Shown here piece by piece: positions 18,127-43,939 of a stretch of 64,000 nucleotides of DNA (positions are counted from its first letter, which is position 1; each line of letters starts with the position of its first letter). Below the pieces are notes generated by a model that saw nothing but the letters and a program-made list of their open reading frames with translations, searched no databases and was not told the origin of the DNA. The stretch is from Candidatus Bipolaricaulota bacterium. Lineage in GTDB: Bacteria; Bipolaricaulota; Bipolaricaulia; RBG-16-55-9; DRXL01. Location: NCBI GenBank assembly GCA_030550495.1, contig JAUQPG010000004.1, positions 2,476 through 66,475 of the forward strand, in the 5' to 3' direction. The position numbers were made by a program, and so were the translations under genes.

Positions 18127-19540
<1,414 letters not shown>

Positions 19541-19609
19541 ATCGGCGGACACACGATTAGGCACGGCCTCGCTTTGAGTTTTGAAGAATCGCCGTCATTT
19601 CTCAGTAGG

Positions 19610-22600
19610 CTAGAGGCGCTCGTCGCGAAGCGCGTACACCTGGAGGAGCCCCGTCTGCAATGCTCGGATCGCTCCTATCAGTGCTTGCGCCCCTTCGAGC
19701 GTCGTCACAGAGGGCACGCGGTGCTTGACGGCCTCAATGCGAATCGCAGCTTCGTCGTGATGCGCGCGCTTGCCCGACGGCGTATTGATAACTAAACAAA
19801 TCTGCCCCTGACGAATCACGTCGACAACGTGGGGATGGCCCTCGCTCACCTTGTTGATAGCACTGACGGCAAGCCCTGCTTGCTGGAGCACGTGAGCCGT
19901 GCCGCGCGTCGCTATGAGAGAGAAGCCCATTTCTGCCAGGGCACGAGCGATGGGCACGATCGCGGATTTGTCGCGATCGTTGACGCTGATGAACGCCGTG
20001 CCCTCAGTAGGGAGCTGGCTCTTGAGATTAAGCTGCGTCTTGGCAAACGCCTCTCCAAGCGTGCGCCCTGATCCCATCACTTCGCCAGTGCTCTTCATCT
20101 CCGGACCTAAGATTGGGTCAGCGAAAAATCTATCGAAGGGGAAGACCGGGGCCTTGACATGAAAACCCTTTACCTTCGGCTCTGCTGTGAATCCTAGCTC
20201 TTTCAGCGTCATGCCCGCCATGACTTTGGCAGCGATCTTCGCGAGGGGGACACCCGTAGCTTTGCTGATGAACGGCACGGTGCGCGACGCGCGCGGATTC
20301 ACTTCCAGTACATACAGCGTATCGTTTTGCACAGCAAACTGTATATTCATTAGCCCGACGACGTTGAGCCGTCGAGCGAGTTTTTTCGTCACAGCGCGCA
20401 CTTCATCTAGAATCTTTTCGCTGAGGGTGAAGGGCGGCAGCACGCAGCAGCTATCTCCCGAATGGATCCCCGCGCGCTCGATGTGCTCTAAAATCCCGCC
20501 GATCACGCAGTCTTCTCCGTCGGCGACGGCATCCACGTCAAGCTCAATCGCGTCTTGGAGGAACTCGTCAATGAGCACAGGCTGCGCGGGTGAGACGCGC
20601 ACGGCCTCTTCAATGTAATGCGCTAGCTCGCTCTTATCGTAGCAGATGGCCATGGCGCGCCCGCCGAGCACATAGCTAGGCCGCACCAGCACTGGGAATC
20701 CAAGATCTTCAGCAACTCGAAGGGCTTCGTCGGCTGAGAACGCGAGGCCACTGCGCGGACGCTTCGCGCCGAGTTCATCCAAGATCAGATTGAACTTTTC
20801 ACGGTCTTCAGCCAAGTCAATATTTTCAGGGCTGGTGCCCAAGATGGGCACGCCGTGCGCCTTCAGAGCGAGCGCCAAGTTCAACGGAGCCTGTCCGCCG
20901 AACTGCACGATTACACCGTTGGGCTCCTCGATCTCAATGATATTTAAGACGTCCTCGAGCGTGAGCGGCTCAAAATAGAGCTTATCTGAAGTATCGTAAT
21001 CTGTTGAGACCGTCTCCGGGTTGCAGTTGATCATGATGACTTCATAGCCCAGCTCGCGCAGGGCGAACGCCGCGTGACAGCAGCAATAATCGAATTCGAT
21101 CCCTTGGCCGATTCGATATGGGCCACCGCCAAGGACGATCACTTTCTTTCTCGTCGTTGGAGCCGCTTCGCACTCGTCGGCTTCGTAGGTCGAGTAGAGA
21201 TAGGGCGTCTGAGCTTCAAACTCGGCTGCACATGTGTCGACTTTCTTGTAGACCGGGTAAATCTTAAATTCTCGACGCTTCGCGCGCACGACCGACTCGG
21301 AAGTTCCCCATATCTTCGCTAGGACGGCGTCGGAGAAGCCGAAGCGCTTGGCTTGGCAAAGCAGCTCCCTAGAGACGCTCTCAAAATCATGGGTGCGCAG
21401 TTTCTTCTCGAGATGCGCGATCTCTTCGAGCTGGGCGAGAAACCACGGGTCTATGCCGGTCCAGCGGGCTAGCTCCTCGACCGAGATCCCTGACTGCAAC
21501 GCGCGATAGAGATAGAAGACTCTCTGAGGATTAGGGCGCTCGAGATAGTCACGGATCAGCTCAGGCGAAAGGGGAAGCTCGACGTCCCCGCCCAGGCCCA
21601 ACCGTCCGATCTCCAACGAGCGAATCGCTTTCTGGAGGGCTTCTTTGAACGTGCGCCCCAGGGCCATCACTTCGCCCACGGAGCGCATCTGCGTCGTGAG
21701 CGTCGTGTCAGTTTCTGGGAATTTCTCAAAGTTCCATCGAGGAACCTTGACGACGACGTAGTCTATCGTCGGCTCGAAGCTCGCCGGAGTCTTTTGAGTG
21801 ATATCGTTGGGCAGCTCGTCGAGGGTGTAGCCCACCGCGAGCTTCGCGGCAATCTTCGCGATGGGGAAGCCTGTCGCTTTAGAGGCCAGAGCCGAGCTGC
21901 GGCTGACACGTGGGTTCATCTCGATGACGAGCATCTCTCCGTCTTTAGGGTTCACGGCAAACTGAATATTGCTTCCCCCGGTCTCGACCCCAACAGCACG
22001 AATTACTCTGATGGCCCAGTCACGCATCTGTTGATACTCTCTGTCAGAGAGCGTCTGCGCTGGCGCGACCGTGATCGAATCTCCTGTGTGGACGCCCATG
22101 GGATCGAAGTTTTCGATAGAACATATAATGACGACGTTGTCGTTGCGGTCGCGCATCACCTCGAGCTCAAACTCTTTCCAACCGATCACGGACTCTTCGA
22201 GCAGGACTTCATGCACAGGGCTTATCTCGAGTCCGTGCTGCGCGACAGCGCGCAGCTCTTCTTCCGTGTGGGCGACGCCGCTGCCCTCTCCTCCCAGCGT
22301 GAACGACGGGCGCACTAAGATGGGATAGCGCAACTTCTGCGACAGAGTGAGAGCTTCGTCGAGAGAGCGCGCAAGGCCCCCGCGAGGCACGGGCAGCCCC
22401 GCGCGCTCCATCGTCTTCTGAAAAAGCAATCTGTCTTCAGCGATCTCGATGGCACGCTGCGACGCGCCGATCAGCTCAATGCTGTAGCGTTCTAAAACTC
22501 GTGAGCGAGCCAACGCGACAGCGAGATTGAGTGCCGTCTGGCCGCCCACGGTGGGCAAGAGCGCGTCGGGGCGCTCGCGCGCGATAATTTTTTCTAGAAT

Positions 22601-22816
22601 CTCTGGGACAAGCGGCTCGATATACACACGCGACGCGCTCTCCGGGTCGGTCATGATCGTCGCAGGGTTATTATTCACTAAAATAACGTCGTAGCCCTCT
22701 TCGCGCAGGGCTTTACACGCCTGGCTGCCGGAATAGTCAAATTCTCCCGCCTGGCCGATGACAATCGGCCCGGAGCCGATCACCAAAATCTTTTTTAGGT
22801 CAGCGCGCTTTGGCAT
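19610..22816 (-). CDS. carB: Carbamoyl-phosphate synthase large subunit
   Basis: 1068 aa with duplicated ATP-grasp halves and an MGS-like C-terminus. Confidence 0.97.
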
Positions 22817-23949
22817 CTCTGTGAACTTTCTATCAGAGCGAAGAACTGATCGAAGAGCGAGAGCGCGTCCTGGGGCCCCGGCGAGGCTTCCGGGTGAAAC
22901 TGCACCGCGAAGACTGGGAGCTTCTTATGTCGAAAACCTTCAATTGAGCCGTCGTTGAGATTGATGTGGGTCAGCTCTAGATCTGGGGGCAGGTCTGCAA
23001 GGGCAAACCCGTGATTGTGCGAAGTGATCTCGACTCTATTGGTCAGGAGATTTTTGACGGGCTGGTTCGCGCCGCGATGGCCGAACTTTAATTTATACGC
23101 GCGCGCCCCCAGCGCTAACCCCAGAATCTGATGGCCCAGACAGATCCCGAAGATCGGGCAGCGCTCAGATTCGATAAGCTGACGGGCTGTGCGTATCGCG
23201 TCTTTGAGAATAGACGGGTCTCCGGGGCCGTTGGAGAGCAGAATCCCATCGGGCTTGAGTTGTAAGATCTCTGCGGCGCTCCAGAACGCCGGGACGACCG
23301 TGACTCTTCTCGCTCGTGATCGCAAGTTTCTCAGAATATTGCGCTTCACGCCGAAGTCCACGACGACGATGTGTAGGCCCTTACCCCGCCCTTGGGGCAC
23401 CCCTCTCCCGTCCGTCAAGACAGAATAGGGTCCAGGGATGAGAGCCTCGCACCACTCATACGGCTCGGTGCAGCTCACGCGATAGACCCAGTTCTCCTCA
23501 GAGATCGTGGGAGCACGCCGAGCGCGCTCGACCAATTCATCGGGATCACTGTCAAAGCTAGAAAGACATCCGCGCATCGCGCCGTGCTCGCGAATGTGTC
23601 GCGTGAGCGCGCGCGTGTCCACATCACACAGCCCAATGATATTGTGCTCTTTCAAATAACGATCTAGGTCCATTTGGCCGCGCCAGTTCGAGAATTTTTG
23701 GGAGAATTCTCGCACGATGAACCCGCTCACCCACGGCCGAGCAGATTCAATATCTTCAGAATTGACCCCGTAATTCCCAATATGGGGGTAGGTCATGCAA
23801 ACGATCTGGCCAGCGTATGATGGGTCGGTGAGAATCTCTTGGTAGCCTGTCATGGCTGTATTGAAGACGACTTCGCCACAGATAATCCCGTGAGCGCCCC
23901 AGGCGCGCCCGTAGAAGACTTTGCCATCTTCGAGGGCTAGGAGCGCCAT
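22795..23949 (-). CDS. carA: Carbamoyl-phosphate synthase small subunit
   Basis: [14 protein letters not shown]... with a GATase domain (GICLGHQ). Start taken at ATG 23949 with a GGGGAGGG RBS. The track GTG at 23967 is a probable extension. Confidence 0.92.
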
Positions 23950-23965
23950 AGGCACCCTCCCCGAC

Positions 23966-24006
23966 ACAAAAAAAATGGGCCAGGCCGCCTCTGCGGCGGC
24001 TGGCCC
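23966..24006 (-). terminator. Rho-independent terminator downstream of rtcA, about 19 nt upstream of the carA start
   Basis: Minus-strand sense: GGGCCAGCCGCCGCAGAGGCGGCCTGGCCC followed by ATTTTTTTT. Confidence 0.6.
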
Positions 24007-24126
24007 ATGATTTCTTTCACTATACAGATATGCCGTGGCACGGCTTGAGCCGGATCACCTCAAGCTACATATTGGCGGGCATTATAGCAGAAGGAGGACT
24101 GGGGGTCAAATCGCTTGCCGTATCGA

Positions 24127-25215
24127 CTATTTCACGGCTCTTGGCTTCACAGATTTGGGTGGTTGCGAGCCAGCCTCTGGCTCACAACCGATCTCCCATA
24201 TCCCCGCGCGTTCGATCACTGTGAACCGAGAGCCCGCGATCTGCTCCGCCACCCAAATATTTGTCTTAATGTGATCTGTCAGTTCGGTGCAAAAGAACCT
24301 TCCACCAAAGAGTGCCAAAAACGGGATGATCTGATCAGCCATGTGCCGGTCAAGCGTCGCACCGCGGCGCAACTCATTCAGTAATGCCGACGCAGCACGC
24401 TCACCGACTCTTTCGGCAGGCACGCCGCGCTCCCCCAGTGCGTCCCCTCCCAAGATAGTCTTTGCGCAATCTGCCCAGAGCACGACAGCTGACCCTGGTG
24501 AGAGCGTCTCGACGTAACGCGTCTCGATTTCAAGAGAAATCCCAGAAAGCTCTCGCTGCAGAAGCGCCTGTGCGGCTTCGGCTTGACGTTCAGCGACCTT
24601 GCCCTTTTGCAGATGGTGTGACGCCAGCGAAACCCCCGCAATCTTGTGAAGCTGCCCTTGCTCAGGGAAATCGAATGGTTTCGCAATATGGGCGGGGCCA
24701 AAGCGCGCGCACACTCGCGCCCCGCCCTTGGGATAGAAGCCCTCGCGCTCAACAGTAAGATGCGCTGGGAATCCCCAACGACTCAGGAGGGCGAAGGTGA
24801 CGTGCTCCAGCGCGGCTATCGGCGGTGCCCACTGCCCATACGTGCCCCCGCCCTCGATCTCGACGCTGACTCTCTGGGCACAGCGCGCCAGCGCGATCTG
24901 AATGGGCTGAAGCGCCAACGCTACCGAGCCCGCCGTCTCGATCCGAATCGTGAGGGAATCGGTTTGTATCAGGCCTGGGGAGAAGACAAGCTCGCGCGAA
25001 CCGATCTGCGCGCCCTCAAGACGCGCTTGACAGAGCTGGGCTGCGGCACGTACGCCCGCGAGGTGCTGGGCTTGTATCCCCGGATTGGGCCGCCCCTGCC
25101 GAATATTTATTACTCTGATAGATTTGTGCAAGGCAATAGCCAAGCCTAGCCCAACCCGTAAGACCGAGCCGCCCCCTATAGCACCATCTAGAACAAGCAC
25201 TCCTTCGCTTGCCAT
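24127..25215 (-). CDS. rtcA: RNA 3'-terminal phosphate cyclase
   Basis: ...GGGSVLRVGLGLAIALHKSIRVINIRQGRPNPGIQAQHL..., an RtcA signature. 362 aa. Confidence 0.9.
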   Translation of the reverse strand: MASEGVLVLDGAIGGGSVLRVGLGLAIALHKSIRVINIRQGRPNPGIQAQHLAGVRAAAQLCQARLEGAQIGSRELVFSPGLIQTDSLTIRIETAGSVALALQPIQIALARCAQRVSVEIEGGGTYGQWAPPIAALEHVTFALLSRWGFPAHLTVEREGFYPKGGARVCARFGPAHIAKPFDFPEQGQLHKIAGVSLASHHLQKGKVAERQAEAAQALLQRELSGISLEIETRYVETLSPGSAVVLWADCAKTILGGDALGERGVPAERVGERAASALLNELRRGATLDRHMADQIIPFLALFGGRFFCTELTDHIKTNIWVAEQIAGSRFTVIERAGIWEIGCEPEAGSQPPKSVKPRAVK

Positions 25216-25276
25216 AGTGCCCTCTCTGTGATATTGTTGTTATCCTACTCTGAAGGACAGCGTTTGTCGAGTAAGT

Positions 25277-26584
25277 ATGTACAGCATACGATTACGAGGC
25301 ATCTACGCGACGGCGTTGGCGGCAGTAGCGCTCGAGCACGGCTGGCGCGTGGCGCAGCCCCCTGAAGAGCTTCAGTCTCGTGTGAACCCAGAAGATCGCT
25401 TTGCCCCATTTGATCTTGAGGTCCGGGATCGTGATGACCGCCAAGGCGTGCTAGTCCTCGGGGATACGAATGCTGTCGGTGCTTTCAAAAGACTGCTCTT
25501 GGCTGAGCTCCCCGATGTCATCTGTGTGCCAGCCTTGACAGAGTTAGGTGCAATTTATCTGGGGATCGTGCACAAGCGCCGTGCCCTAGGCTATGAGATA
25601 GACCTAGGTAATTTCATGGGGTTTCTGCCCAAGACGGAGCTCACACACCCACTCAAGAAGGGCGAGGCTATTCGCGTGCAAATCAGAGAGATCGTTCATG
25701 TTCAGCCGATCGTGACGACCCAGCTCAGCCTCGCTGGACGATTCGTGGTGCTCTGCCAAAAGCAAGGTGTGGGCATCAGCAAAGAGATCATCGACCCTGA
25801 TGAGCGCAAGCGGCTCTTGAGTCTTGGAAGAAGATATTGCGCCAACGGCTGGGGGGTGATCTGGCGCACTAGTGCGTATCGAAAGGATCTTCGCGATCTC
25901 AAAAGTGAGATCGAGATCTTACAGCGCGACTTGCCCACGCTCGAGGGACACCCTGACGAAGGCATCCCTGGGAAGTTGCGCTCGGGCCAAATGACCTTGA
26001 TCTGTGAGTTTCCCGGAGGGAGCAAGCAAGTGCTCGATCAATGGCGTGCGCGTCTCATCCCAACAGAGCCAGGATATCATCAGAGTCAAGTGGGAGATCG
26101 AGCCTGGCCGCGCGTAGGCCAATCGATCTTCATCGAGCACGTCAAGGTGCCTAGCGAGCTGAGCGTGCTGATGCGCGCTCGCGTGATCGCCGTAAGTCCT
26201 AGTAGTATTACTGTGCGTCGCGAGATCAAGGGCACGGGAGTCTACGATGGGCTCAATATCCCCAAAGAATCGGGTGACTATGCCGTAACGGAATTTCTTC
26301 AAGGCGCTTGGCACTATGAGACGCGCTACTACTCGCGGAACGGCTTGCTCAAGGGCATCTATGTGAATATTAACACGCCCATAGAGATTTACGCAGATCG
26401 CGTGCGCTATGTCGACTTGGAGATCGATGTTGTGCAGAGACCCACTGAACCAGCGCAGGTCATTGATGAGCCGAAGCTTGAGTCCATGGCTCAGTATGTG
26501 AGCTCCGGCCTCGTGCAACGAGCGCGCACCGTCGCTGCGGAGTGCGTGCAGATGCTCAATCACTGCGCTCATGGCGCAGAGTGA
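25277..26584 (+). CDS. FAU-1-like protein: RNase E/G-like N-terminal region fused to a C-terminal DUF402 domain
   Basis: S1-like region, GRFVVLCQKQGVGISKEIIDPDERKRL and GVIWRTSA (the RNase E/G 5'-sensor/catalytic-half pattern). The C-terminal ...GIYVNINTPIEIYADRVRYVDLEIDVV is DUF402-like. Confidence 0.65.
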   Translation: MYSIRLRGIYATALAAVALEHGWRVAQPPEELQSRVNPEDRFAPFDLEVRDRDDRQGVLVLGDTNAVGAFKRLLLAELPDVICVPALTELGAIYLGIVHKRRALGYEIDLGNFMGFLPKTELTHPLKKGEAIRVQIREIVHVQPIVTTQLSLAGRFVVLCQKQGVGISKEIIDPDERKRLLSLGRRYCANGWGVIWRTSAYRKDLRDLKSEIEILQRDLPTLEGHPDEGIPGKLRSGQMTLICEFPGGSKQVLDQWRARLIPTEPGYHQSQVGDRAWPRVGQSIFIEHVKVPSELSVLMRARVIAVSPSSITVRREIKGTGVYDGLNIPKESGDYAVTEFLQGAWHYETRYYSRNGLLKGIYVNINTPIEIYADRVRYVDLEIDVVQRPTEPAQVIDEPKLESMAQYVSSGLVQRARTVAAECVQMLNHCAHGAE

Positions 26585-27392: not shown

Positions 27393-29087
27393 ATGTGGCG
27401 TGGGTGTGTCTGTGGGCTTCTCGCGGCGGCCTTGGCGGGCGCTTCCGGGCTCGCCCAGCTCAAGATTGAGAATATCGAGCTGGGGTTCAATGGGCGCTTC
27501 TTCCCAGGCACATTTACCCCTATTGCTGTTACACTTAGCTCTGCCGCGACGGCTCAGAACTTCACTCTGGAAGTCTCCCAGGAGATCCGGGAGTTCACGG
27601 AGCGCCGCGCCGTAGAACGATTACGAGTGCCGGTCAGCCTTGCTGCGGGGGCGCGTAAAGTCATCTCGTTCGATTTCCCCATCTATAGTGTGAGCACGCC
27701 GCTCCAGCTTAGGCTCATGAACGGCCCTCAGGAGCTTGCTCGCTCTACGATAGAGGTGCGCGAGCTGTGGAGCGAGACCCCGTTGGTCTTGGGGGTCGCA
27801 GTCGCTCCGAGGCCCTCTCTAGGACTGATAGACGTAGAGAAGCTTCCCAAGCGCTGGTCGAGCTACGATGGCGTAAGACGCATCTTGTGGGGGCGAGCCG
27901 ATCCCGCGCGTCTCAGTACAGAGCAGCGCCGAGCGTTGCAAGGCTGGCTGGTGCGCGGAGGCGAGCTCGTCATTCTCTCTGGGGCTAATTGGTACGAGCA
28001 ATTCTCTCCCCAAGCGTGGTGGGCCCAGCTCTTGCCCATCACGGGCGGGCGCGTCGTGCGCTCTGAGTTCAACGGTCAGGAAGTCCTGTGGCTTGAAGGC
28101 GATCTGCGTGCAGGAGCGCGGGTGACGCTCACCTATCAGGGACGCCCCCTTGCGTGGGAGCGCCCTATAGGGAACGGTACGGTTGTGCTTGTCGCTATAG
28201 CGACTTTACCGGAAGATCTAGAACTTTCTGAGCTATCTAGCCGTCAGACCGTAGAAGACGATCTCGTGATCGTCAGGGCACTTGGAGCGCTGCCAGTGCC
28301 TTTCCCCTCACGGGAGCTCATTGGGGTGCTCTTGATACTCTTTGTGCTTGGGGTAGGGCTCAGCGGGATGTTCGTAGAGCGGTGGAAGAAGCTGCCCCTT
28401 GGAGTTGGCTTGCTCGCTCTTATCTTATCGGGCGTGCTTTTCAGTTACCAGCGCAGCCCGGAGTTCTCGAGTGAGAAATACTCGCTTGATATTGGAGTCA
28501 TACAGAGCTGGTCTGGTGGGGCAGTAGCGTGGGAACGCAGCTGGTATGGGGTCTTCTTCCGTCGCTCTCGTGAGGAACAGCTTCTAGGGTCTGCCGAGAT
28601 GGTGAGCACGCTGAAGCCATCGCGTCAAGCTCTGCGCTCTGAAGGAGAGACTGTGAGGGAGCTTGCCCTGAGTGGGGACTGGCAGCTCCGTTTTTATGGC
28701 GAGCGCGACTCCGTCAGCTTTTTCAAAACAGAGCGTCTCATGGAGCCCTTTGTCCACTTCTCGCTCAATGATTCTAGACTTTGGGTGTCTAACCGAGCCT
28801 CTGTGGCATTGCAGGACGTGATCGCGTATAGTGGGGATGCGCTCTATCAGCTAGGGACGATCCCAGCTCAGACGGAGCTCGTGCGCCCGCTAACGGAGCG
28901 CGTCAGCAAGACTGAATGGGTAAATACTCTCACATCGGAGCGTCGGAGGATATGGCAACAATGGGGGAATATATCGAGCCGGACGGGACTCATCGGGTGG
29001 ATAGAAGACATAAATATTTCGTCTCTTCGTCTCGCTCTTGGTGAGAGTAGGACGGTCTTACGGCTCGTGCTTGTTGAGGGAGATTGA
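27393..29087 (+). CDS. Hypothetical exported/membrane protein (signal peptide plus internal TM helices)
   Basis: 564 aa beginning MWRGCVCGLLAAALAGASGLAQ, with hydrophobic segments near residues 305-350. No recognisable domain. Translationally coupled to the next gene (ATGA). Confidence 0.65.
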   Translation: MWRGCVCGLLAAALAGASGLAQLKIENIELGFNGRFFPGTFTPIAVTLSSAATAQNFTLEVSQEIREFTERRAVERLRVPVSLAAGARKVISFDFPIYSVSTPLQLRLMNGPQELARSTIEVRELWSETPLVLGVAVAPRPSLGLIDVEKLPKRWSSYDGVRRILWGRADPARLSTEQRRALQGWLVRGGELVILSGANWYEQFSPQAWWAQLLPITGGRVVRSEFNGQEVLWLEGDLRAGARVTLTYQGRPLAWERPIGNGTVVLVAIATLPEDLELSELSSRQTVEDDLVIVRALGALPVPFPSRELIGVLLILFVLGVGLSGMFVERWKKLPLGVGLLALILSGVLFSYQRSPEFSSEKYSLDIGVIQSWSGGAVAWERSWYGVFFRRSREEQLLGSAEMVSTLKPSRQALRSEGETVRELALSGDWQLRFYGERDSVSFFKTERLMEPFVHFSLNDSRLWVSNRASVALQDVIAYSGDALYQLGTIPAQTELVRPLTERVSKTEWVNTLTSERRRIWQQWGNISSRTGLIGWIEDINISSLRLALGESRTVLRLVLVEGD

Positions 29088-29746
29088 GTATGCGCGCTGT
29101 GCTGAGTTTAAACAGATCATGGTCAACGTATGTGAGCTATCTAATCTTGACTGGGATTCCATTGTTGCTGGTGTTGCCGTCGCCGGCTCGAGTCGATGCG
29201 CTTATCGAGCCTCGCTTGAATCTAGCTACTGGCTTTATGATCATCGCTACGGCGCTCTTTGCCGTGTACTCATTCAACTTTGGGCTAGCCCACGCACGGC
29301 TCGATCTTCCCCCCACAGAGATCCGTATCAATCTGTTCGCTCATGTTCTCTTTTTGGTGGTGCTGAGTCTGCCCTATTGGACGGTCTTTGCTGGTATCAC
29401 TGGGCACGGACTAGGCCGTCTCTGTGGGGCTTTGGGATATTTAGGGCTCTATGGGGCATGTTGGGCCGTGCTGGGCGTGCCCATTGGGCGGCGCTGGCCC
29501 ACAGAGATCGCCCAGTTTCATATGAAATACGCGTTGCTCATTGTGGGCATGGGTGTGACGTTCTTCGTGCTCAGGCCTCTGAACCCGTTCTTGATGCTCT
29601 CGCTGTGGTTTGGCGAGGGCGCGCTGCGCGAGCAAGTGGGATTCTTGATCATGGGCTACTTATCGCTAATAGCAGCGTTAGGTGCCCTCTCCTGGTGGGG
29701 AATTCAAGGAGGAAAGAATGCACTCGTTCGAGACGATACGCGTTAG
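29084..29746 (+). CDS. Hypothetical polytopic membrane protein
   Basis: 220 aa with 5-6 predicted TM helices. Its start overlaps the stop of the upstream gene. Confidence 0.6.
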   Translation: MSMRAVLSLNRSWSTYVSYLILTGIPLLLVLPSPARVDALIEPRLNLATGFMIIATALFAVYSFNFGLAHARLDLPPTEIRINLFAHVLFLVVLSLPYWTVFAGITGHGLGRLCGALGYLGLYGACWAVLGVPIGRRWPTEIAQFHMKYALLIVGMGVTFFVLRPLNPFLMLSLWFGEGALREQVGFLIMGYLSLIAALGALSWWGIQGGKNALVRDDTR

Positions 29747-31295
29747 CTTAGAGCGTCGCAAGCGCTTGGTACAAGGGAGCGCGCTGGCGAGCTGGGCTCT
29801 GCTGGGCAGCTTCGGAATAACTGCGCTTATGCTGCTAGGGAGTACCCTTGGGATTTGGGGTGCTCTCCCGTTATCTGCTTGGGTGATCGGGAATCTCTTA
29901 GTTGGCGCGCTCGCGTTTATGGTGGGATGGCTGCGACCGATTAATACTATAGAATTGCTCTTTCGTGCGGATCGCCAGTGGCGCACGAACGAGAGACTCG
30001 TAACGCTCTATGAGCTCAGTCTGGGCTATGGCCCTCAAGAGTTTCTCCCGTTGCTGGAGCGCCAGCTCAATCGGCTCTCTGTGAACGCAGCTCAAGCTCT
30101 GCCTTGCACATCACGGGACAAGTGGCGCTGGGTGGTCGTCGTGATTTTAGCGCTCGTCTGCGTGAGCCTGACAAGCTTCGTTCAGTTAGGGGCGCTCTTT
30201 GTGCGCACCGAGCCAGATCGCTCAGGGGCGACTGCTCAAGCAAGCCGAGAGTCTCAGCGGGCATCGCAGCTGCTAGAATGGTTGCAGACGCCCTCCGCAG
30301 AGCTTGCTCAAAAGCTTTTGTCAGTGCGAGAGCGCCTTGAGCAAGCCCGTGCTGCACTCGCGCTCAATCCTAATGATCCGCGCGCTCGCGCGGCGCTCCA
30401 GCAGCTTCACGCTGAGCTCATCCAAGAACAGCAGCGCCTTGCGCCTCCACTGCCTTCGGCTGAAGAAGAGCAACCGAAGAGATCACGCCCTGAGTCCTCT
30501 CTTGTCGAAGGCTCTCCGGGCGAGCCGCGTCCTCCTCAGCGAGGCACCTCTGAGGCGCTAGCGCTCAATCAGCTCTTGCAGAGCTTGCGCAGCGTCTCTG
30601 AGCAAGCGCAGAGTCTCTCCCCAGAAGAGCTACAAAAGCTCTTGGAGCAGCTCCGCGAAACGAATCCCGATGCTGCGGCCCTCGCCGAGCACCTCTTACA
30701 GATGACGCAAACCCCTGAAGAGTTTCGCGAGCGCCTCGAAGAGATCTTGCGCAAGCTTGAAGCGCGCCAAGCTCTTCGAGAACAATTAGAGAATCTGCAG
30801 CGTGAGCTTGAGTCAGCTCTCATGCCATCTGAGCCGCAAGTCGAGCGCGAAGAATCTCCCACGGGCTTCCCTAGCGCGATGACCCCACGTGAAGAAAGCT
30901 CTCCCCAAGCCCAGCAAGAGGGCCAGCAGGGCTTAGCTTCCGAAGCTCACGGGATTCAGTCACAAGAACGACAAGAAGAGGGGCAGACGTCAGCCGGAGC
31001 AGGGCGCGGTACAGCCCCGCTCGACCCGGAAGCTGCTCAAGATCTGCCTGATCTCTCCCAGTTGCGTGAACGCTCGCGCGAGCTCTCCGTTCCAGGCTCC
31101 CAACAAGACGATCTCGAAATTCTCTTTGAGATCGTCACTATGGAGCTGCCTCAAGGGAGTGAGACCCCTTGGAGTACTACTCCTGTGCAGATCGACTACG
31201 GCAAAGTCGAAGCCCTGCTCGATATGCTCGAAATCCCTGAAGAACTCCGCGACGCAGTGCGCCAGTATTTTCTGAGTCTCAGCCGTCAACGCTAA
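29718..31295 (+). CDS. Hypothetical membrane-anchored protein with a long Q/E/L/A-rich coiled-coil region
   Basis: AAGGAGG RBS 7 nt before ATG 29718. Two N-terminal TM helices, then low-complexity and coiled-coil sequence. Confidence 0.6.
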   Translation: MHSFETIRVSLERRKRLVQGSALASWALLGSFGITALMLLGSTLGIWGALPLSAWVIGNLLVGALAFMVGWLRPINTIELLFRADRQWRTNERLVTLYELSLGYGPQEFLPLLERQLNRLSVNAAQALPCTSRDKWRWVVVVILALVCVSLTSFVQLGALFVRTEPDRSGATAQASRESQRASQLLEWLQTPSAELAQKLLSVRERLEQARAALALNPNDPRARAALQQLHAELIQEQQRLAPPLPSAEEEQPKRSRPESSLVEGSPGEPRPPQRGTSEALALNQLLQSLRSVSEQAQSLSPEELQKLLEQLRETNPDAAALAEHLLQMTQTPEEFRERLEEILRKLEARQALREQLENLQRELESALMPSEPQVEREESPTGFPSAMTPREESSPQAQQEGQQGLASEAHGIQSQERQEEGQTSAGAGRGTAPLDPEAAQDLPDLSQLRERSRELSVPGSQQDDLEILFEIVTMELPQGSETPWSTTPVQIDYGKVEALLDMLEIPEELRDAVRQYFLSLSRQR

Positions 31296-31304
31296 AGGAG
31301 AGTT

Positions 31305-32291
31305 ATGATCACTGAGAAGAGAATTCGCGAGCTGCAAGAGAAGTTCCATGAACTCATAGCAGAGATTCGTTCTGTCATCATTGGTCACGAAGAAGTTATC
31401 AAGCACGTGCTGATTGGATTGCTCTGTGGGCAGCACTTGTTGTTGGAGGGTGTACCGGGGCTGGGCAAGACGCTGTTGGTGCGCACCCTAGGAAGAGCTT
31501 TGGGTTTAAAATTTGCGCGCATTCAGTTTACCCCAGACTTGATGCCCGCGGACATCATCGGCACGCGCATTCTCGTCGAGGACGAGTCAGGCCGACGCCA
31601 TTTTGAGTTTGCTCGCGGCCCGGTCTTCGCGCATCTGGTCCTGGCTGACGAGATCAACCGTGCGACCCCTAAGACGCAGTCAGCGCTCTTGGAAGCTATG
31701 CAGGAACGTAGCATCACTGTGAGCGGGGAGACGTACAAGCTCGAAGAGCCGTTCATGGTCTTAGCGACGCAAAACCCCATTGAGATGGAAGGGACCTACC
31801 CATTGCCGGAGGCCCAGATCGATAGATTCTTTTTTAAGATTCTCTTGCGCTATCCGTCGCTGGGCGAACTCGAAGAGATTCTCCGGCGTCACGGGGGCGG
31901 CCAAGAATCTCAGGCTGTGAGACAAGTCTTGACACGTGAAGAGCTCTTAGAAGTGCAGCAGCTTGTGGCACAATGGCCTACGGCATCGCCACTGCGACGC
32001 TACGCGGCGCGGCTTGTCTACGCGACGCAGCCGTCTTCCCCAGACGCACCAGAGCTCGTCAAAAAGTACGTGGAATACGGGGCGAGTCCGCGTGCGGCGC
32101 TTGCGCTCATCTGGGGCGCTAAAGCTCATGCATTTCTCTCGGGAGAGCTCAACACGCGCATTGCCGACATCCAAGCCGTCTTCTATCCTAGTTTGATTCA
32201 TCGGATCATTCGGAATTTCCGCGGGGAAGCCGAGGGCATCCCCGTCGAGCAGATTCTGCAGCAGGTCTATGAGCAGATCCAGCCTACGTAA
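31305..32291 (+). CDS. MoxR-family AAA+ ATPase
   Basis: Walker A GVPGLGKT, Walker B LADEINRA and ...VLATQNP. Confidence 0.93.
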   Translation: MITEKRIRELQEKFHELIAEIRSVIIGHEEVIKHVLIGLLCGQHLLLEGVPGLGKTLLVRTLGRALGLKFARIQFTPDLMPADIIGTRILVEDESGRRHFEFARGPVFAHLVLADEINRATPKTQSALLEAMQERSITVSGETYKLEEPFMVLATQNPIEMEGTYPLPEAQIDRFFFKILLRYPSLGELEEILRRHGGGQESQAVRQVLTREELLEVQQLVAQWPTASPLRRYAARLVYATQPSSPDAPELVKKYVEYGASPRAALALIWGAKAHAFLSGELNTRIADIQAVFYPSLIHRIIRNFRGEAEGIPVEQILQQVYEQIQPT

Positions 32292-33141
32292 GCGCGACGA
32301 ATCTTTCTGGAAGCGACTCTCCGCGCTGCAGCTTCTGGTGCGCCACCGGGCGGAGGGCCAAGCCGGCCCGTGGACGACCCGCCGCGTCGGCATGAGCTTG
32401 GAGTTTGCGGAGTATCGCGAGTATTACCCCGGGGACGACTTTCGCTACGTCGATTGGAATCTCTATGGTCGGCTCGATCGGCTCTTTGTGAAAGTCTTCC
32501 ATCGGGAAGAGAACATCCCTGTTTATGTGCTCATCGATACGAGCCAGTCGATGTCCGTAGGGGAGAAGCTCTCCTACGCTGGGGAGCTCGCCGGAGCTCT
32601 CTCGTATATCGGGCTCAAAGATATGAACCGTGTAGGTGTCTTTGCGTTTGCGCGTGCTCTCGTCCAAGGGGTGCCAGCCCGCAGCGGCTTATCTCACCTC
32701 CAGAAGATCTTGAGCTTTCTCGAAGGACTCCAGCCGAACGATCGGACGTCCTTGAGCACAGCCCTAGAAGAGTTCAGCAAGCTTCCGGTGCGTCGGGGTT
32801 TAGTGGTTGTGTTGAGCGATATGCTCGATCCTGCAGGATACGAGCAAGGGCTCTTCCATCTGCTTATCAAGCGCCATGAGATAGCGTTGGTCCAAATCCT
32901 TGCCCCAGAAGATCTCGAGCCGCCAATACATGAGGCAGCACGACTCGTCGATAGCGAAGGGCTTGGGGAGTTCTCAGTATCGGCTGGGGCAGTAGCACGC
33001 TATCGCCAGAGATTGCTTCAGTATGAGCACGGCTTAGAGACGTTCTGCCGCACGCATCAGATTCGGCATAAGGTGCTTTCAGCGGCGCGGCCGCTGGAGC
33101 GCGCCCTTTTTGAAGACTTGCGCGGGGTGCTCTTCGTATGA
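32269..33141 (+). CDS. DUF58-domain protein (MoxR-associated VWA-like)
   Basis: ...RRVGMSLEFAEYREYYPGDDFRYVDW...VLIDTSQSM... Overlaps the MoxR stop by 23 nt. An alternative start is ATG 32392. Confidence 0.85.
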   Translation: MSRSSLRKRDESFWKRLSALQLLVRHRAEGQAGPWTTRRVGMSLEFAEYREYYPGDDFRYVDWNLYGRLDRLFVKVFHREENIPVYVLIDTSQSMSVGEKLSYAGELAGALSYIGLKDMNRVGVFAFARALVQGVPARSGLSHLQKILSFLEGLQPNDRTSLSTALEEFSKLPVRRGLVVVLSDMLDPAGYEQGLFHLLIKRHEIALVQILAPEDLEPPIHEAARLVDSEGLGEFSVSAGAVARYRQRLLQYEHGLETFCRTHQIRHKVLSAARPLERALFEDLRGVLFV

Positions 33142-34808
33142 TCTTTCTCAGTGCGTGGGCGTTTGGACTCTTGGGGGTAGCAAGCGTGATCGCTCTCTTA
33201 TACTTCCTGCGACGACGTGAGGAACGCCTGGTCGTCTCGGCCATCTGGCTCTGGGAAGAAGAGCACGAACGCCCGCGCAGCGCCTTGACGCTCTTATGGA
33301 CGAAGATCTGGTTATTGCTCGTGCAATTAGCAGCTCTCGCGGCGCTCGTCTTCAGCCTCGCGGAACCGACTCTGACTCGAGAATTTATCGGAGGCGGCAC
33401 GCTCGCGCTCATCATTGACGGCAGTGCGAGTATGCAAACAGCTGAGCAGGGAAAGACACGCTATGAGCTTGCGATCGCGCGCGCTGCGGAGCTGATCGAG
33501 CAACGACGTCCCAATCGATTGACAATCATCCAAGCGCAGCAGAGCCCGAAGCTCCTTGTGCCCCTGACTGAAGACCGACCGCGTGCTCTCTTCACTTTGA
33601 AAGCTTCTCAACCGACACTCCAGGGCGACGCAAAGCCCTCTGATATTCTTGAGCTCGTGCGCAGCCAAGGCGGGCTTGAAAACTTTCACGAAGTGATCTA
33701 TATAAGCGATCACGCGCCGGCGCTGCCCATACCGTGGGTCTCCGTAGGCGAGCCTAGGAAGAATCTCGCGATCACGGGTTTTGCTGCTCGCCCGGTGCCT
33801 GATGGGACGTCTCAAGCTATAGTGTGGGCTCGCGTCCAGAATTTTTCATCAGAGGCGCTCGAAGGGACTCTAAAGCTCTTTGCTGAAGAGACTGAGATCC
33901 ACCAAGAGCGCATATCTCTTGGCCCTGGAGAGCAGCGCTCGGTCGAAGCGCTTGCGCCTTTATATACACGCTTCCGTGCTGTACTGGACGTCATCGACGA
34001 CTTCGCCTTCGATAACATTCGGTACTCGGTCATTCCGAGGCGTCCGCAGTTAAAGATTCTCTGGCTTGGGGAGCGCAATTTCTTTCTGATGCGCGCGCTC
34101 AGCACATTCGCTGAAGTGTCTATACAAACAGACGAGACAGCAAGCTATGATCTCGTTATTGCTCATAACACAGCGATACGCCCTGTCGGTGCGGTGTTAT
34201 TGATTAACAGCGTTGCGGAGCCTTGGGTGGTGCGCGCGGGGAGCATCAGCGAGCCTGGCTCACTTCAAGTATTGGTTCCCGGCCACCCACTCGTGCAGCA
34301 TGTGCGCGGGGAGCACCTACGCCCAACAACGCTCTCCGGTGCTCAGCTTGCTCCAGGTGTACAGACACTTATTGCGTCAGGGGATCAGCCCATCTTAGCA
34401 GCGTACAGATCGCAGGGCTTACGTTTCGTCTATCTAGGTGTTGACTTAAAAAGCTCTCCCTTGGTGCTTACTCCAAGCTTTCCCATTCTCATACGCAATA
34501 GTATTTATTGGCTTATTCCTGAGCTAGGGTTGCCATCGGAGCGGTTCGTATCAGACGAGTTTGCTACGCTGGGTTTTGCTGATCAGACGGCAATCAATCT
34601 AGACCCAACCGAGTCTGAGATCAATCGTCTTGGCTCTCCGAGTTTCGTCCCACAAGAAAGCCCAACAAGAGAGACAAAAAGCCAAATTTATACACCCATC
34701 TGGTATCTTGGGGCATGGGCAGCGTTCGTGGCGCTTGCTGGGGAATTGCTCTGGTACTATTGGGGTGTGTTCCGTCGCCGGAGGTGGAGCTATGAGCGTG
34801 CTCCTTGA
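33138..34808 (+). CDS. BatA-like protein: N-terminal double-TM anchor, a VWA domain (DGSASM MIDAS motif), a large middle region and a C-terminal TM helix
   Basis: MIFLSAWAFGLLGVASVIALLYFLRRRE... then LALIIDGSASMQ, with a C-terminal hydrophobic helix. Confidence 0.8.
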   Translation: MIFLSAWAFGLLGVASVIALLYFLRRREERLVVSAIWLWEEEHERPRSALTLLWTKIWLLLVQLAALAALVFSLAEPTLTREFIGGGTLALIIDGSASMQTAEQGKTRYELAIARAAELIEQRRPNRLTIIQAQQSPKLLVPLTEDRPRALFTLKASQPTLQGDAKPSDILELVRSQGGLENFHEVIYISDHAPALPIPWVSVGEPRKNLAITGFAARPVPDGTSQAIVWARVQNFSSEALEGTLKLFAEETEIHQERISLGPGEQRSVEALAPLYTRFRAVLDVIDDFAFDNIRYSVIPRRPQLKILWLGERNFFLMRALSTFAEVSIQTDETASYDLVIAHNTAIRPVGAVLLINSVAEPWVVRAGSISEPGSLQVLVPGHPLVQHVRGEHLRPTTLSGAQLAPGVQTLIASGDQPILAAYRSQGLRFVYLGVDLKSSPLVLTPSFPILIRNSIYWLIPELGLPSERFVSDEFATLGFADQTAINLDPTESEINRLGSPSFVPQESPTRETKSQIYTPIWYLGAWAAFVALAGELLWYYWGVFRRRRWSYERAP

Positions 34809-37332
34809 CGCGCCTTGGGCTCTGCTAGGGATCGTCGTGATCGTTCTTGGAGTCTGGGCGACGCGGAAGCGCTGGCGCAATCTCCCAAGAGGAGATCAGG
34901 TAGCTCTGCTTGCACGCGCCGGGGCGCTCGCCTTGCTCTGTCTTGCTCTCGCTGGCCCACGCTTCGCTTCTGGCGCTTCCGAACGATTTATCTATTTCGT
35001 GGTCGACCGCTCGGCCAGCGTGGGCGCAGAGCCTTCGGAGCTCTTACAAATCGTACAGGCGCTGGCTCAGCCTGCTGAGGGAGTCTCCTACGGGCTTATC
35101 AGCTTTGGTGCGGAGCCGTTAATCGAGACGAGCTTTGCCCCAACGCTCTCTCTGACCGAATTCCAAACGGAGCCTAACGCAACCGCGACGGACATCGCCA
35201 GCGCGATACGCTTAGCTTTAGAGACCTTGCCGCGCACCGGTCGCCGGGAGATCGTTCTGTTTACAGACGGGCAGATGACTTCTGGGGAGATCTATTCTGT
35301 CTTGGCGCGCGCGCGTCGTGAGGGCGTCCCCATTCACGTCTGGCCCCTCGGAGGAGATTTCTTAGAAGTCTGGCTCTATGATCTGCAGGTGCCCGCGGAA
35401 GTCCCTGTAGGAGTGCCCTTCTCCTTGCGTGTGGAAGTCGGCGCGACCACGCGCGGGACCGGCACAATACTTCTGTACCGAAACGGCGAGCTTATCCACA
35501 CGGTCTCTATCGAATATGCTCCTGGCATCCAAGAAGTGCGCTTGACAGATCAGCTTGAGACGCCAGGCGCTTTTGCGTACAGAGTGTATCTGAAAGCTGA
35601 TAGTGATCGGCTTAGGGAAAACAACGAGCTCTATGGGGTGACGATAGTCCCTGGCGGGCCGCAGGTGCTCATCGTAGAGCGCTCTGGGGGCGAGAGCACG
35701 GTAGCTCGCCTAGTCCGCAGCAGCGGGCTCTCTTTCGAGCAACGTGAGCTCTCTGAACTGACAGCGCTCCCGCTGGCAGAGTATAAAGTTATTATTCTCA
35801 ACAATATCCCGATGGGGCAGCTCACGAAGGAGCAGCGTCGGGCTCTGAAGAATTTCGTCGCTGATCTTGGGGGAGGGCTGTGGGTTATTCAAGGGCGTGA
35901 GGCCGTCGCGGGCTTAGAAGAGCAGACCGGCCCAGAGCTCGCTGACTTAGAAGAGCTCTTGCCCGTTTCGTATTTGGCCCCTGAGCCCTATCAGATTCCG
36001 GGGTTGGCTCTGGTCTTCGTGATGGACCGCTCAGGGAGCATGGGCGATCCCGCTGGCGGCGTCCCCAAGATAGAGATTCTCAAGCGCGCGGCTCTCCGGA
36101 GCTTGGACGTCCTTGATCCCGAAGACTGGGTTGGGCTCATCGCGTTTGATACTGACTTTGACTGGATCGTCCCGCTCAAGCCTCTTGGGGACCGGCGCGA
36201 TTTCCAAAGCAGCATCCAACGGCTGAACGCCAACGGCGGCACCGATCTCTATTTCGCCCTGAGATCGGCGTTTGAGACTTTAGAGAAGACGCCGGCGCGC
36301 GTCAAGCATATTTTAGTTTTCACCGACGGGCATAATAATACCAGACGCGAGCGCGAGTATCGCGAGCTCTATGAGCGTTTCCAAAAGAGCACCGTGCGTG
36401 TCTCCGCGCTGGGGATTGACCGGGCGCCTAACGAAGAGTTTCTCATGGAGCTGGCGACTGCCGGGCGCGGACGGTATCAACGCGTGCGCGAGTTTTCAGA
36501 TCTGCCCGTCTTTTCGCTGCGCGAGGTACGGCGCATCGCGCGGCTGCGCTGGATCGAAGGGCAGAGCCTTGTGCGCGCCCTCGCCCCTATGAAGGCAGAG
36601 GACTTCCCTCCCGTGCGCGGGTACGTGCTCACACATGAGCGCCCAGGGGCGCAAACAGTGCTTGTCGCTCTTCCCGACGAGAACCCGCTCTTGGCTTTTA
36701 AACGTTACGGCCTAGGACACGTTGCCGTGCTCAATACAGATCTTGAAGGTGATGGGGCGCCCGAATGGCTACGCTGGTCAGGGCTGAGTCAGCTCTTTGC
36801 AGAGAGTCTCGGGCAGCTCTATCGCCCCATCCCGCGTCAAGGAGAGCTCACAGTACAAACTGTCTTAGGCGATGAAAGCTTAGAGATCATTGCTGATATA
36901 CGCGAGCAAGATCGCTGGATCTCGGACGCAGAGCTATATGCCCAGCTGATCGGCCCAAGTCAAAGAGATATAGTGCTTTTGCCTGTAGCTCCAGGGCGCT
37001 ATCGCGCCCAACTTTTGCGCATTCCTCAAGGGCAGTATACTCTTCGTATAGAGGCTAAGCGCGCGGGCCAACTGCTCAGTGAAGTGATCAAACCCGTTGC
37101 TACTCCGTATGCCAAGGAGTATCGTCAGATTGGGCTCAACAGTGATCTCGTGAGCGAGATCACGCGTATCACGGGCGGGGAGGTCTTAGAACGGGCGGTT
37201 CTGCCGCCGCCGTCAGGCAAAGTGGCTCAAGAGACATATCGAGCACTGTGGCCCTGGCTGCTTCTGAGTGCATTAGGGCTCTTTCTCGTTGACTTAGCGC
37301 TGCGCAAGCTGTGGTGGCTCCTGGAGCGCTAA
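34792..37332 (+). CDS. BatB-like protein with two VWA domains, an N-terminal TM helix and a C-terminal TM helix
   Basis: VWA-1 has FIYFVVDRSASVG and VWA-2 has LVFVMDRSGSMGD...NGGTDLYFAL. GGAGGTGGAG RBS precedes ATG 34792. The ORF-track start at 34630 is an upstream extension. Confidence 0.8.
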   Translation: MSVLLDAPWALLGIVVIVLGVWATRKRWRNLPRGDQVALLARAGALALLCLALAGPRFASGASERFIYFVVDRSASVGAEPSELLQIVQALAQPAEGVSYGLISFGAEPLIETSFAPTLSLTEFQTEPNATATDIASAIRLALETLPRTGRREIVLFTDGQMTSGEIYSVLARARREGVPIHVWPLGGDFLEVWLYDLQVPAEVPVGVPFSLRVEVGATTRGTGTILLYRNGELIHTVSIEYAPGIQEVRLTDQLETPGAFAYRVYLKADSDRLRENNELYGVTIVPGGPQVLIVERSGGESTVARLVRSSGLSFEQRELSELTALPLAEYKVIILNNIPMGQLTKEQRRALKNFVADLGGGLWVIQGREAVAGLEEQTGPELADLEELLPVSYLAPEPYQIPGLALVFVMDRSGSMGDPAGGVPKIEILKRAALRSLDVLDPEDWVGLIAFDTDFDWIVPLKPLGDRRDFQSSIQRLNANGGTDLYFALRSAFETLEKTPARVKHILVFTDGHNNTRREREYRELYERFQKSTVRVSALGIDRAPNEEFLMELATAGRGRYQRVREFSDLPVFSLREVRRIARLRWIEGQSLVRALAPMKAEDFPPVRGYVLTHERPGAQTVLVALPDENPLLAFKRYGLGHVAVLNTDLEGDGAPEWLRWSGLSQLFAESLGQLYRPIPRQGELTVQTVLGDESLEIIADIREQDRWISDAELYAQLIGPSQRDIVLLPVAPGRYRAQLLRIPQGQYTLRIEAKRAGQLLSEVIKPVATPYAKEYRQIGLNSDLVSEITRITGGEVLERAVLPPPSGKVAQETYRALWPWLLLSALGLFLVDLALRKLWWLLER

Positions 37333-40453: not shown

Positions 40454-40528
40454 TGGCTCCTCGGGCAGGATTCGAACCTGCGACCCACCGGTTAACAGCC
40501 GGTTGCTCTACCGCTGAGCTACCGAGGA
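40454..40528 (-). tRNA. tRNA-Asn (anticodon GTT) with encoded CCA
   Basis: Minus-strand sense TCCTCGGTAGCTCAGCGGTAGAGCAACCGGCTGTTAACCGGTGGGTCGCAGGTTCGAATCCTGCCCGAGGAGCCA. Cloverleaf with 7-bp acceptor stem and GTT anticodon in the CTGTTAA loop. Confidence 0.9.
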
Positions 40529-40597
40529 ATCCGCTATATTATAGCAGGTAAGACCCGGGCAAGTCAACTATGGCACAATGATCATGAAGAAAAATAG

Positions 40598-41177: not shown

Positions 41178-41208
<31 letters not shown>

Positions 41209-41673: not shown

Positions 41674-41717
<44 letters not shown>

Positions 41718-43887: not shown

Positions 43888-43939
<52 letters not shown>

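Follow-up and report, generated by a model that had tools for sequence, protein, structure and literature searches.

The RNA-binding protein family FAU-1 was renamed RNase W in 2024, when the C-terminal DUF402 domain was identified as the seat of the nuclease site (PMC11602121). In the Pyrococcus furiosus enzyme the S1/5'-sensor module binds the 5'-phosphorylated end of RNA and the nuclease activity lies in DUF402, the isolated C-terminal domain being a potent RNase whose activity is abolished by the D424K mutation; the N-terminal part is auto-inhibitory, and R10D/R12D and H271A/H272A mutants are hyperactive (PMC11602121). In the crystal structure of this enzyme an RNA 3'-phosphate occupies the DUF402 active site, and the chemistries considered possible by the authors include cleavage of a terminal 3'-phosphate and the resolving of a cyclic 3'-phosphate (PMC11602121). 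The present analysis concerns a gene of this family, here called rnw, at positions 25277-26584 of a 64-kb stretch of DNA (64,000 nt; hereafter the window) from a member of the deeply branching bacterial phylum Bipolaricaulota (contig JAUQPG010000004.1), where it stands head to head with rtcA, the gene for the RNA 3'-terminal phosphate cyclase.

Endoribonuclease activity and a role in late 16S rRNA maturation have been reported only for P. furiosus (in vitro) and Haloferax volcanii (deletion of HVO_0406), and RNase W, called archaea-specific in the literature, was proposed in 2024 to be the first factor of ribosome biogenesis that is specific to archaea (PMC11602121). The same distribution is given in a 2025 survey of ribosome biogenesis factors in bacteria, the supplement of which has K22469 (fau-1) in 0% of non-CPR (Candidate Phyla Radiation) and 0.2% of CPR genomes. 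The RNase W paper mentions neither RtcA nor a cyclase (PMC11602121), and literature searches found no paper containing both RtcA and FAU-1/RNase W and none pairing FAU-1 with Bipolaricaulota, Acetothermia or OP1. What is new with respect to this literature is an old, phylum-wide bacterial clade of RNase W and an association of its gene with rtcA in both domains of life.

Architecture and fold of the 435-residue protein

The gene and the domains of its product are as follows.
25277-26584, plus strand: rnw/fau-1, assigned as an RNase W orthologue, 435 aa, ATG start, complete open reading frame (ORF) including the stop codon.
25277-25546, plus strand: N-terminal ("central") domain, about residues 1-90, from the alignment to 8rza, with approximate boundaries.
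25547-25981, plus strand: S1 and 5'-sensor module, about residues 91-235, with boundaries taken from the deletion in short forms of the family.
25982-26101, plus strand: helical linker region, about residues 236-275, with the conserved patch EFPGGSK...LD..R..PT..G(Y/H)H.
26102-26581, plus strand: predicted DUF402-type catalytic domain, residues 276-435, from Pfam and residue mapping.

The position and length of the ORF and both peptides quoted in the initial annotation were recovered exactly, QGVGISKEIIDPDERKRL at residues 163-180 and GWGVIWRTSA at residues 192-200. The annotation had described an RNase E/G-like S1 plus 5'-sensor region joined to a C-terminal DUF402 domain, and this is borne out by an end-to-end match with the RNase W structures 8wo8, 8rza and 8rzf and by superposition of the predicted model. 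Pfam places DUF402 at residues 334-398 (E 2.9e-14, 53 bits vs a cut-off of 23.9) and RNase_E_G at residues 151-222 (E 2.7e-10), the latter covering model positions 1-73 of 270 only, which limits the resemblance to RNase E/G to the S1/5'-sensor region. Among the NCBIfam models, TIGR00757 reached 44 bits (cut-off 326, residues 121-218), RNase G NF008689 26 bits (cut-off 594) and NtdP NF049996 12.8 bits (cut-off 280), the last missing the threshold of the Ntdp/FomD-type family. A missing DUF402 domain and a complete RNase G catalytic domain, either of which would speak against this architecture, were looked for, and neither was seen in the Pfam and NCBIfam searches; by Pfam, NCBIfam and Foldseek an RNase E/G-type catalytic domain is absent, and the S1/5'-sensor module is the sole RNase E/G-homologous part of the protein. 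The invariant columns of the helical patch are E244, F245, P246, K250, D254, R257, T263 and H268.

A phmmer search of the PDB returned P. furiosus RNase W/FAU-1 (8wo8, 1.8e-69; 8rza, 2.4e-68) and the Sulfolobus acidocaldarius enzyme (8rzf, 5e-34); the alignment to 8rza and 8wo8 spans residues 3-432 in two stretches meeting at residue 276, and RNase E was matched over residues 138-217 only. The AlphaFold2 model, built from a 99-sequence alignment (pLDDT, the predicted local distance difference test, 94.6; pTM, the predicted template modelling score, 0.91), was matched by Foldseek over its full length to 8wo8 and 8rza (query-normalised TM-score, TMq, 0.87 and 0.88; root-mean-square deviation about 3 Å) and to 8rzf with a TMq of 0.73. 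The structures of Ntdp (7d8g), FomD (5zdn), SC4828 (3cbt) and RNase E each cover one part at a TMq of about 0.3: the fold match to 7d8g comprises the C-terminal domain only (TMq 0.29), the S1 and 5'-sensor module matches the corresponding Caulobacter crescentus RNase E structure 4oxp, and RNase E structures align over about 200 columns with a target-normalised TM of about 0.26. With RNase E and the DUF402 phosphatases thus matching one part each, the annotated resemblance to archaeal FAU-1 proteins, as opposed to stand-alone DUF402 proteins, holds. Judged by sequence and modelled fold, the 435-residue protein is an RNase W (FAU-1) orthologue in which an RNase G/E-like module is fused to DUF402. 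Family membership is trivially recoverable, since the Acetithermum autotrophicum orthologue is already entered in UniRef as "RNA-binding protein FAU-1, ribonuclease E"; elsewhere orthologues are called "Ribonuclease G/E" (Joint Genome Institute, JGI) or "DUF402 domain-containing protein" (NCBI).

The closest characterised relative is P. furiosus RNase W (8rza, 8wo8; PMC11602121, PMC5627344), which has the same order of N-terminal/central, S1, 5'-sensor, helical and DUF402 domains, 32% identity and a TM of 0.87-0.88 to the window protein. The latter has a bacterial host, and its length falls short by about 35 residues owing to a deletion in the linker that precedes DUF402; about 30 residues of this linker are missing relative to other family members, which accounts for the shorter protein. 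The roles of the DUF402 active-site residues were defined for the P. furiosus enzyme (PMC11602121), and all ten are identical: H288, K290, R315, D324, T338, Y351, N364, D380, D384 and D397 of the window protein correspond to H326, K328, R355, D364, T378, Y391, N404, D420, D424 and D437. Across 80 labelled sequences from bacteria and archaea these residues show no or almost no variation. R5 and R7 are the counterparts of the switch arginines R10 and R12 and are conserved in 44/44 and 43/44 bacterial-like sequences, respectively, and the sensor and switch residues S168, R177, R197, T198 and H268 (P. furiosus S172, R181, R201, T202 and H272) are likewise kept. Other positions of the pocket have changed. 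R173 is replaced conservatively by Lys (K169) and K170 by G166, while two replacements are non-conservative and specific to the crown Bipolaricaulota clade: K174, a 5'-phosphate contact equivalent to Escherichia coli R142, has become Glu170, and H271 has become Tyr267. The Lys-to-Glu change is fixed across the crown clade, where it reads GISKEI in the raw sequences, and deeper bacterial members retain Lys or Arg at this position.

With bacterial RNase E/G (E. coli 2c4r, C. crescentus 4oxp) the window protein has the S1 and 5'-sensor folds in common, and the 5'-monophosphate-binding residues R169, T170 and S140 of E. coli RNase E correspond to R197, T198 and S168. Unlike RNase E/G, it lacks the RNase H-like, DNase I-like and Zn-link domains and the RNase E catalytic aspartates; catalysis in RNase W is assigned to a different domain, and P. 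furiosus RNase W is reported to be a monomer (or trimer), RNase E/G a tetramer. The stand-alone DUF402 phosphohydrolases (Staphylococcus aureus Ntdp 7d8g, FomD 5zdn, SC4828 3cbt) share the beta-barrel fold and the metal ligands N364, D380 and D384, but they are single-domain enzymes of about 170-200 aa acting on nucleoside di- and triphosphates; RNase W, in contrast, binds RNA in reverse polarity and employs H326 and K328 along with D364, which is supplied by a rearranged beta5-beta6 loop.

Pocket variation was also seen among archaea. In 41/52 Bathyarchaeia/Nitrososphaerota-type species-representative loci (L014-L080) the sensor motif reads WGIIWRE, with Glu instead of the 5'-phosphate-contacting Thr (P. 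furiosus T202, E. coli T170), and Leu replaces R173 in the same proportion (41/52); the Thermococci retain the canonical pocket, so that 5'-end recognition may differ between archaeal lineages too. Natural short forms of about 315-370 aa (P0280, P0307, P0254, P0303, P0340, P0454 and others) lack exactly the S1/5'-sensor module but still have an N-terminal domain, a helical patch and a complete DUF402 active site. They are labelled Bathyarchaeota, Aenigmarchaeota, Aigarchaeota, Thaumarchaeota, in one case Thermodesulfobacteriota and in one case "bacterium", and some bear the JGI name "protein associated with RNAse G/E". With regard to the control of such sensor-less forms, it is of note that the isolated C-terminal domain of the P. 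furiosus enzyme is a hyperactive RNase.

Bacterial host and phylogeny of the RNase W clade

The window that carries rnw also contains a bacterial-type 23S rRNA (2488 bits), a 5S rRNA, a tRNA-Asn and a LytR_cpsA_psr gene, and its GC content is uniform (0.52-0.59). The closest homologues are labelled Bipolaricaulota, Bipolaricaulia or Acetothermia. A scan of one genome per GTDB species gave 547 relatives; among the best 80 of these, 15 loci are bacterial. The close bacterial loci share the gene order of the window, RtcA / RNase W / DsbA-like / P564 / P220 / P537 with carA-carB beyond rtcA, and the same order was found in independent assemblies from different studies. At 90% identity the bacterial clade comprises 55 clusters, and at 50% identity the whole family comprises 794, the named members belonging to Thermococci, Sulfolobus, Bathyarchaeia, Methanomethylicia, Theionarchaea, Methanofastidiosia and Asgard lineages. 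Since the window has a bacterial 23S rRNA and Bipolaricaulota species loci number at least 15, the archaea-only distribution given in the literature is not upheld, which is no ground for removing the protein from the family, and the taxonomic range of the fusion, which the initial annotation had proposed to check, extends over these bacteria as well as the archaeal groups.

Neighbour-joining of 80 sequences (463 columns, 100 bootstraps, Kimura correction) recovered the bacterial sequences as monophyletic in 93/100 bootstraps and the Bathyarchaeia in 98%; the mean distance of the bacterial clade was 1.35 to Bathyarchaeia and 1.29 to Thermococci, much as between the two archaeal groups (1.25). 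In a 288-sequence tree with representatives of the whole family no labelled archaeon fell inside the 51-sequence bacterial clade, and its four-member sister group is bacterial as judged by the context of P0064, where P564-like, P220-like, P537-like and MoxR genes again follow downstream and rtcA, in divergent orientation, is found at a distance of two genes. The phylogeny against archaeal FAU-1 suggested by the initial annotation thus yields a single bacterial clade that is not nested in the sampled archaeal groups. Comparison with seven orthologues gave dN/dS ratios of 0.13-0.23, indicating purifying selection. The bacterial rRNA, the synteny, the single clade and the purifying selection therefore point to an old, single, phylum-level acquisition and not to contamination. 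On these sequence comparisons the simplest history is that the Bipolaricaulota stem lineage acquired the gene once and long ago, most likely from an archaeon, and that vertical inheritance under purifying selection across the phylum followed; the direction, from archaeon to bacterium, is the part of this history that we infer. Other bacterial phyla may carry the family as well, given the short form labelled Thermodesulfobacteriota and the one CPR genome in the 2025 survey.

Six of the related loci (L002, L003, L006, L010, L011 and L016) were deposited as "uncultured Thermotogae" or "Candidatus Fraserbacteria", and all fall in the bacterial RNase W clade. Four of them (L002, L003, L006 and L010) have the multi-gene synteny of the window at 63-76% RNase W identity, so these labels are probably wrong or outdated for Bipolaricaulota; L011 and L016 show partial synteny only, at 65% and 40% identity. 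One short-form locus labelled "bacterium" (L092) was considered as a second bacterial lineage and not used, the label being unverifiable from the contig and its RtcA being closer to those of Bathyarchaeia.

Pairing with rtcA and a possible chemistry at RNA ends

The gene that faces rnw and the spacer between them comprise the following features.
24127-25215, minus strand: rtcA, RNA 3'-terminal phosphate cyclase, 362 aa, with Pfam RTC and RTC_insert and TIGR03399.
25216-25276, between the divergent genes: intergenic region of 61 bp with two overlapping promoter-like sites, from a consensus scan.
25209-25237, plus strand: putative promoter-like TTGCCA-17-TATTGT with an upstream TG, from the same scan.
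25270-25242, minus strand: putative promoter-like TCGACA-17-TAGGAT, also from the scan.

The assignment of RtcA rests on TIGR03399 (320 bits vs a cut-off of 250), PF01137 (1.5e-62) and PF05189 (6.9e-24), and the protein contains DRHMADQ, which we take to be the histidine adenylylation motif of RtcA. The two genes diverge from a spacer of 61 bp. Conservation of both hexamer pairs and of the core TGTGATATTGT..GTATCCTA extends over 11 crown-clade loci and may point to coordinated or mutually exclusive transcription of rtcA and rnw. In 12 of the 14 Bipolaricaulota species loci with upstream flank the genes stand head to head, 53-125 bp apart, and rtcA is linked in the deep-branching L087 too.

In archaea the pair takes another form. 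Among 52 Bathyarchaeia/Nitrososphaerota-type loci rtcA lies directly upstream of rnw on the same strand in 51, with gaps of -17 to +72 nt, mostly 2-25, and the one exception begins at a contig end. An rtcA-rnw operon is also present in a Methanomethylicota contig and in L088, and in L084 it continues into a gene for a Trm5/TYW2-type tRNA methyltransferase. The uncharacterised RNase W proteins of Bathyarchaeia and Methanomethylicota, known from metagenome-assembled genomes (MAGs; e.g. P0080, P0117), have the architecture and active site of the window protein at 32-36% identity, and their RtcA proteins are 35-38% identical to that of the window; their rtcA precedes rnw on the same strand with a gap of 2-25 nt, as in an operon, whereas the window pair is head to head. 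A neighbour-joining analysis places the bacterial RtcA proteins apart from those of Bathyarchaeia, at a mean distance of 1.29 from these and of 0.99 from assorted others. The named organisms whose RtcA comes nearest to the bacterial one are Aenigmarchaeota and Helarchaeota, and there rtcA is not beside rnw. With the RtcA proteins of bacteria and archaea thus separated in a crude analysis, each domain seems to have maintained the pairing independently. The initial annotation had read the divergent pairing as a hint of a role in RNA end processing; the pairing itself proves non-accidental, conserved in 12/14 Bipolaricaulota loci and as a co-directional operon in TACK-type archaea, and it suggests that RNase W and RtcA act on the same RNA ends. 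Such a link fits the P. furiosus structure, because an RNA 3'-phosphate was found in the DUF402 site and cyclic-phosphate resolution was listed by the authors.

Two further ideas about the pair were not borne out. Joint transfer of an rtcA-rnw cassette from Bathyarchaeia is unsupported in this crude tree, the RtcA proteins not grouping and the outgroup rtcA genes not being beside rnw. An acidic substitution of the sensor pocket that tracks rtcA linkage, suggested by K174E in crown Bipolaricaulota, T202E in Bathyarchaeia representatives and R201H in deep Bipolaricaulota, was rejected on the raw sequences, which show a pocket of canonical or near-canonical type in rtcA-linked members such as P0080 and P0117.

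Taken overall, the window gene probably encodes a functional bacterial RNase W orthologue that was acquired once, has been kept, and may act together with RtcA on RNA ends. With the homologous P. furiosus enzyme as a guide, the S1/5'-sensor module would bind the 5' end of single-stranded RNA, and R5 and R7 of the N-terminal domain would close onto this end in the manner of the published "molecular switch", relieving auto-inhibition. The RNA would then be handed to the C-terminal DUF402 domain, where the metal site formed by N364, D380, D384, D397 and D324, together with H288 and K290, may cleave the phosphodiester. RNase W and the cyclase could meet on the same ends, with 3'-phosphate or 2',3'-cyclic phosphate termini, the substrates being probably rRNA precursors.

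Several observations weigh against this account. The full-length D424K and H326A mutants of the P. furiosus enzyme are still active and no phosphatase activity was found (PMC11602121), so that the chemistry of the family is not fully settled. The archaeal substrate, an opened circular pre-16S rRNA produced through the EndA/RtcB pathway, is not known to occur in bacteria, and the predicted activity of the bacterial members is argued from homology. The replacements of K174 by Glu and of H271 by Tyr in the crown clade mean that end recognition or regulation may differ there. The rtcA link is absent in the bacterial loci L007 and L010 and in the deep Acetothermia locus L085, it occurs in 0/13 Thermococci loci, and none was found in the Sulfolobus, Asgard and Theionarchaea loci examined. 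As to the history, the trees are simple neighbour-joining trees with Kimura correction, which leave the deep nodes and the donor lineage unsettled.

Among the alternatives, those that concern the identity and origin of the gene are decided by the data. An ordinary bacterial RNase G/E, as the JGI name of the orthologues and the presence of an RNase_E_G match might be taken to indicate, would have to be reconciled with a Pfam match that ends at position 73 of the 270-position model, with a TIGR00757 score of 44 bits where 326 are required, with RNase E structures that align over some 200 columns at a target TM near 0.26, and with a helical linker and DUF402 downstream of the sensor; the domain and fold data already refute it, and we give it practically no chance. 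That the gene comes from an archaeal contaminant or a mis-binned contig might be supposed, the family being otherwise archaeal (PMC11602121) and the related genomes being all MAGs, some with inconsistent labels (Fraserbacteria, Thermotogae); this explanation is effectively refuted by the bacterial 23S and 5S rRNA and the LytR_cpsA_psr gene in the same contiguous 64 kb, by the uniform GC content, by the same gene order in independent assemblies from different studies and by the deep clade that the bacterial sequences form on their own, and it appears very improbable.

The alternatives that concern chemistry and gene order leave more room. DUF402 might act here as a phosphohydrolase of RNA ends or nucleotides, for instance as a 3'-phosphatase or 2',3'-cyclic phosphodiesterase on RtcA-made ends, with the S1/5'-sensor serving only as a tether: Ntdp, FomD and SC4828 are phosphohydrolases with the same metal ligands, the P. 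furiosus crystal holds a terminal 3'-phosphate whose removal, or the resolution of a cyclic phosphate, was named by its authors (PMC11602121), and end chemistry accords better with the recurrent rtcA neighbourhood than bulk cleavage does. This is nevertheless unlikely, as the authors found no phosphatase activity on RNA or nucleotides, the isolated C-terminal domain is a strong RNase abolished by D424K (PMC11602121), and the score against the NtdP model is negligible (12.8 bits vs 280). The adjacency of rtcA might, on the other hand, be functionally meaningless, an inherited order with one TACK and one Bipolaricaulota arrangement, or a cassette transferred once. Phylogenetic inertia could account for conservation within a lineage, no more than two to three independent arrangements are on record, many archaeal lineages are without the link, and the rtcA of the window also heads a carA-carB-pyrB cluster unrelated to RNA. 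However, the orientation differs between the archaeal operons and the bacterial head-to-head pairs, the RtcA of neither domain has that of the other as its closest relative, the link persists at FAU-1 identities down to 37-40% within bacteria (L016, L018, L087), and it recurs with a domain-reduced paralogue (L092). We therefore doubt that the order is without function, while allowing it an appreciable share of the probability. A functional RNase W that works with RtcA may be extended further, to a conserved two-enzyme RNA-end module assembled or kept in both domains, in which RNase W generates or consumes 3'-phosphate or 2',3'-cyclic phosphate ends, the archaeal enzyme has been recruited to bacterial rRNA maturation, possibly replacing RNase E/G, and the Lys-to-Glu change retunes which 5' ends activate it. 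This extension is put forward tentatively, and as a whole it is more probably wrong than right; if true, it would settle the chemistry of the DUF402 nuclease site.

An intact, phylum-wide and selectively maintained bacterial clade corrects the stated archaea-only distribution, and its existence suggests that the enzyme can work outside the archaeal EndA/RtcB pathway of pre-rRNA circularisation. Bacteria offer a second cellular context in which to ask what RNase W recognises, and the rtcA neighbourhood is a testable lead on two questions that arise from the structural paper, DUF402 chemistry at RNA 3' ends and the control of its activity. A first cultured representative of the Bipolaricaulota has reportedly been announced in a preprint (10.1101/2025.11.21.689855), and it may make experiments possible.

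Neighbouring genes and other elements of the window

The neighbours of rnw are a DsbA-like thioredoxin, three conserved proteins without Pfam matches, a MoxR/DUF58/BatA/VWA cluster and, beyond rtcA, carA-carB-pyrB. Other RNA-repair genes (RtcB and the like) were sought near the locus, and none of the neighbours examined was RNA-related. On the minus strand rtcA is the first of a co-directional run rtcA, carA, carB, pyrB (18574-25215), with a gap of 159 nt, an overlap and a gap of 115 nt between successive genes. A pyrimidine-biosynthesis neighbourhood is also found in L092, for no apparent functional reason: there (4926-6996) the short form begins 4 nt downstream of rtcA, and upstream of rtcA lie genes with Pfam domains of a phosphoribosyltransferase (possibly pyrR), an aspartate carbamoyltransferase (pyrB-like) and a dihydroorotase (pyrC-like).

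Downstream of rnw on the plus strand, the three Pfam-less conserved proteins of 564, 220 and 537 aa (27393-31295), the first with weak sub-threshold matches, are followed at 31305-37332 by genes for a MoxR AAA protein, a DUF58 protein, a BatA-VWA protein and a 900-aa VWA protein. Throughout the Bipolaricaulota, deep-branching L087 included, the whole block (27393-37332) keeps its synteny with rnw, and it looks like a Bat/MoxR-type membrane complex with lineage-specific subunits.

The rRNA locus (40454-46226, minus strand) has the order 23S, 5S, tRNA-Asn. Within the window no 16S gene lies upstream of the 23S gene, the next gene being LytR_cpsA_psr (45012-46226), so 16S may be unlinked from 23S-5S. 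The 23S match (40752-44550, minus strand) measures 3,799 nt against a 2,925-position model, and an insertion at about 41763-42469 gives a full-length, sub-threshold match to group I introns (34.7 bits vs a gathering score of 50, E 2.7e-6). An ORF of 176 aa within it (41773-42303, minus strand) has the LAGLIDADG-type motif LAGFADGEGSF, and the insertion resembles a group I intron that carries a homing endonuclease, here in a Bipolaricaulota 23S gene. A c-di-GMP-I (cyclic di-GMP) riboswitch aptamer was found at 55932-56018 on the minus strand (40.7 bits vs a gathering score of 35).

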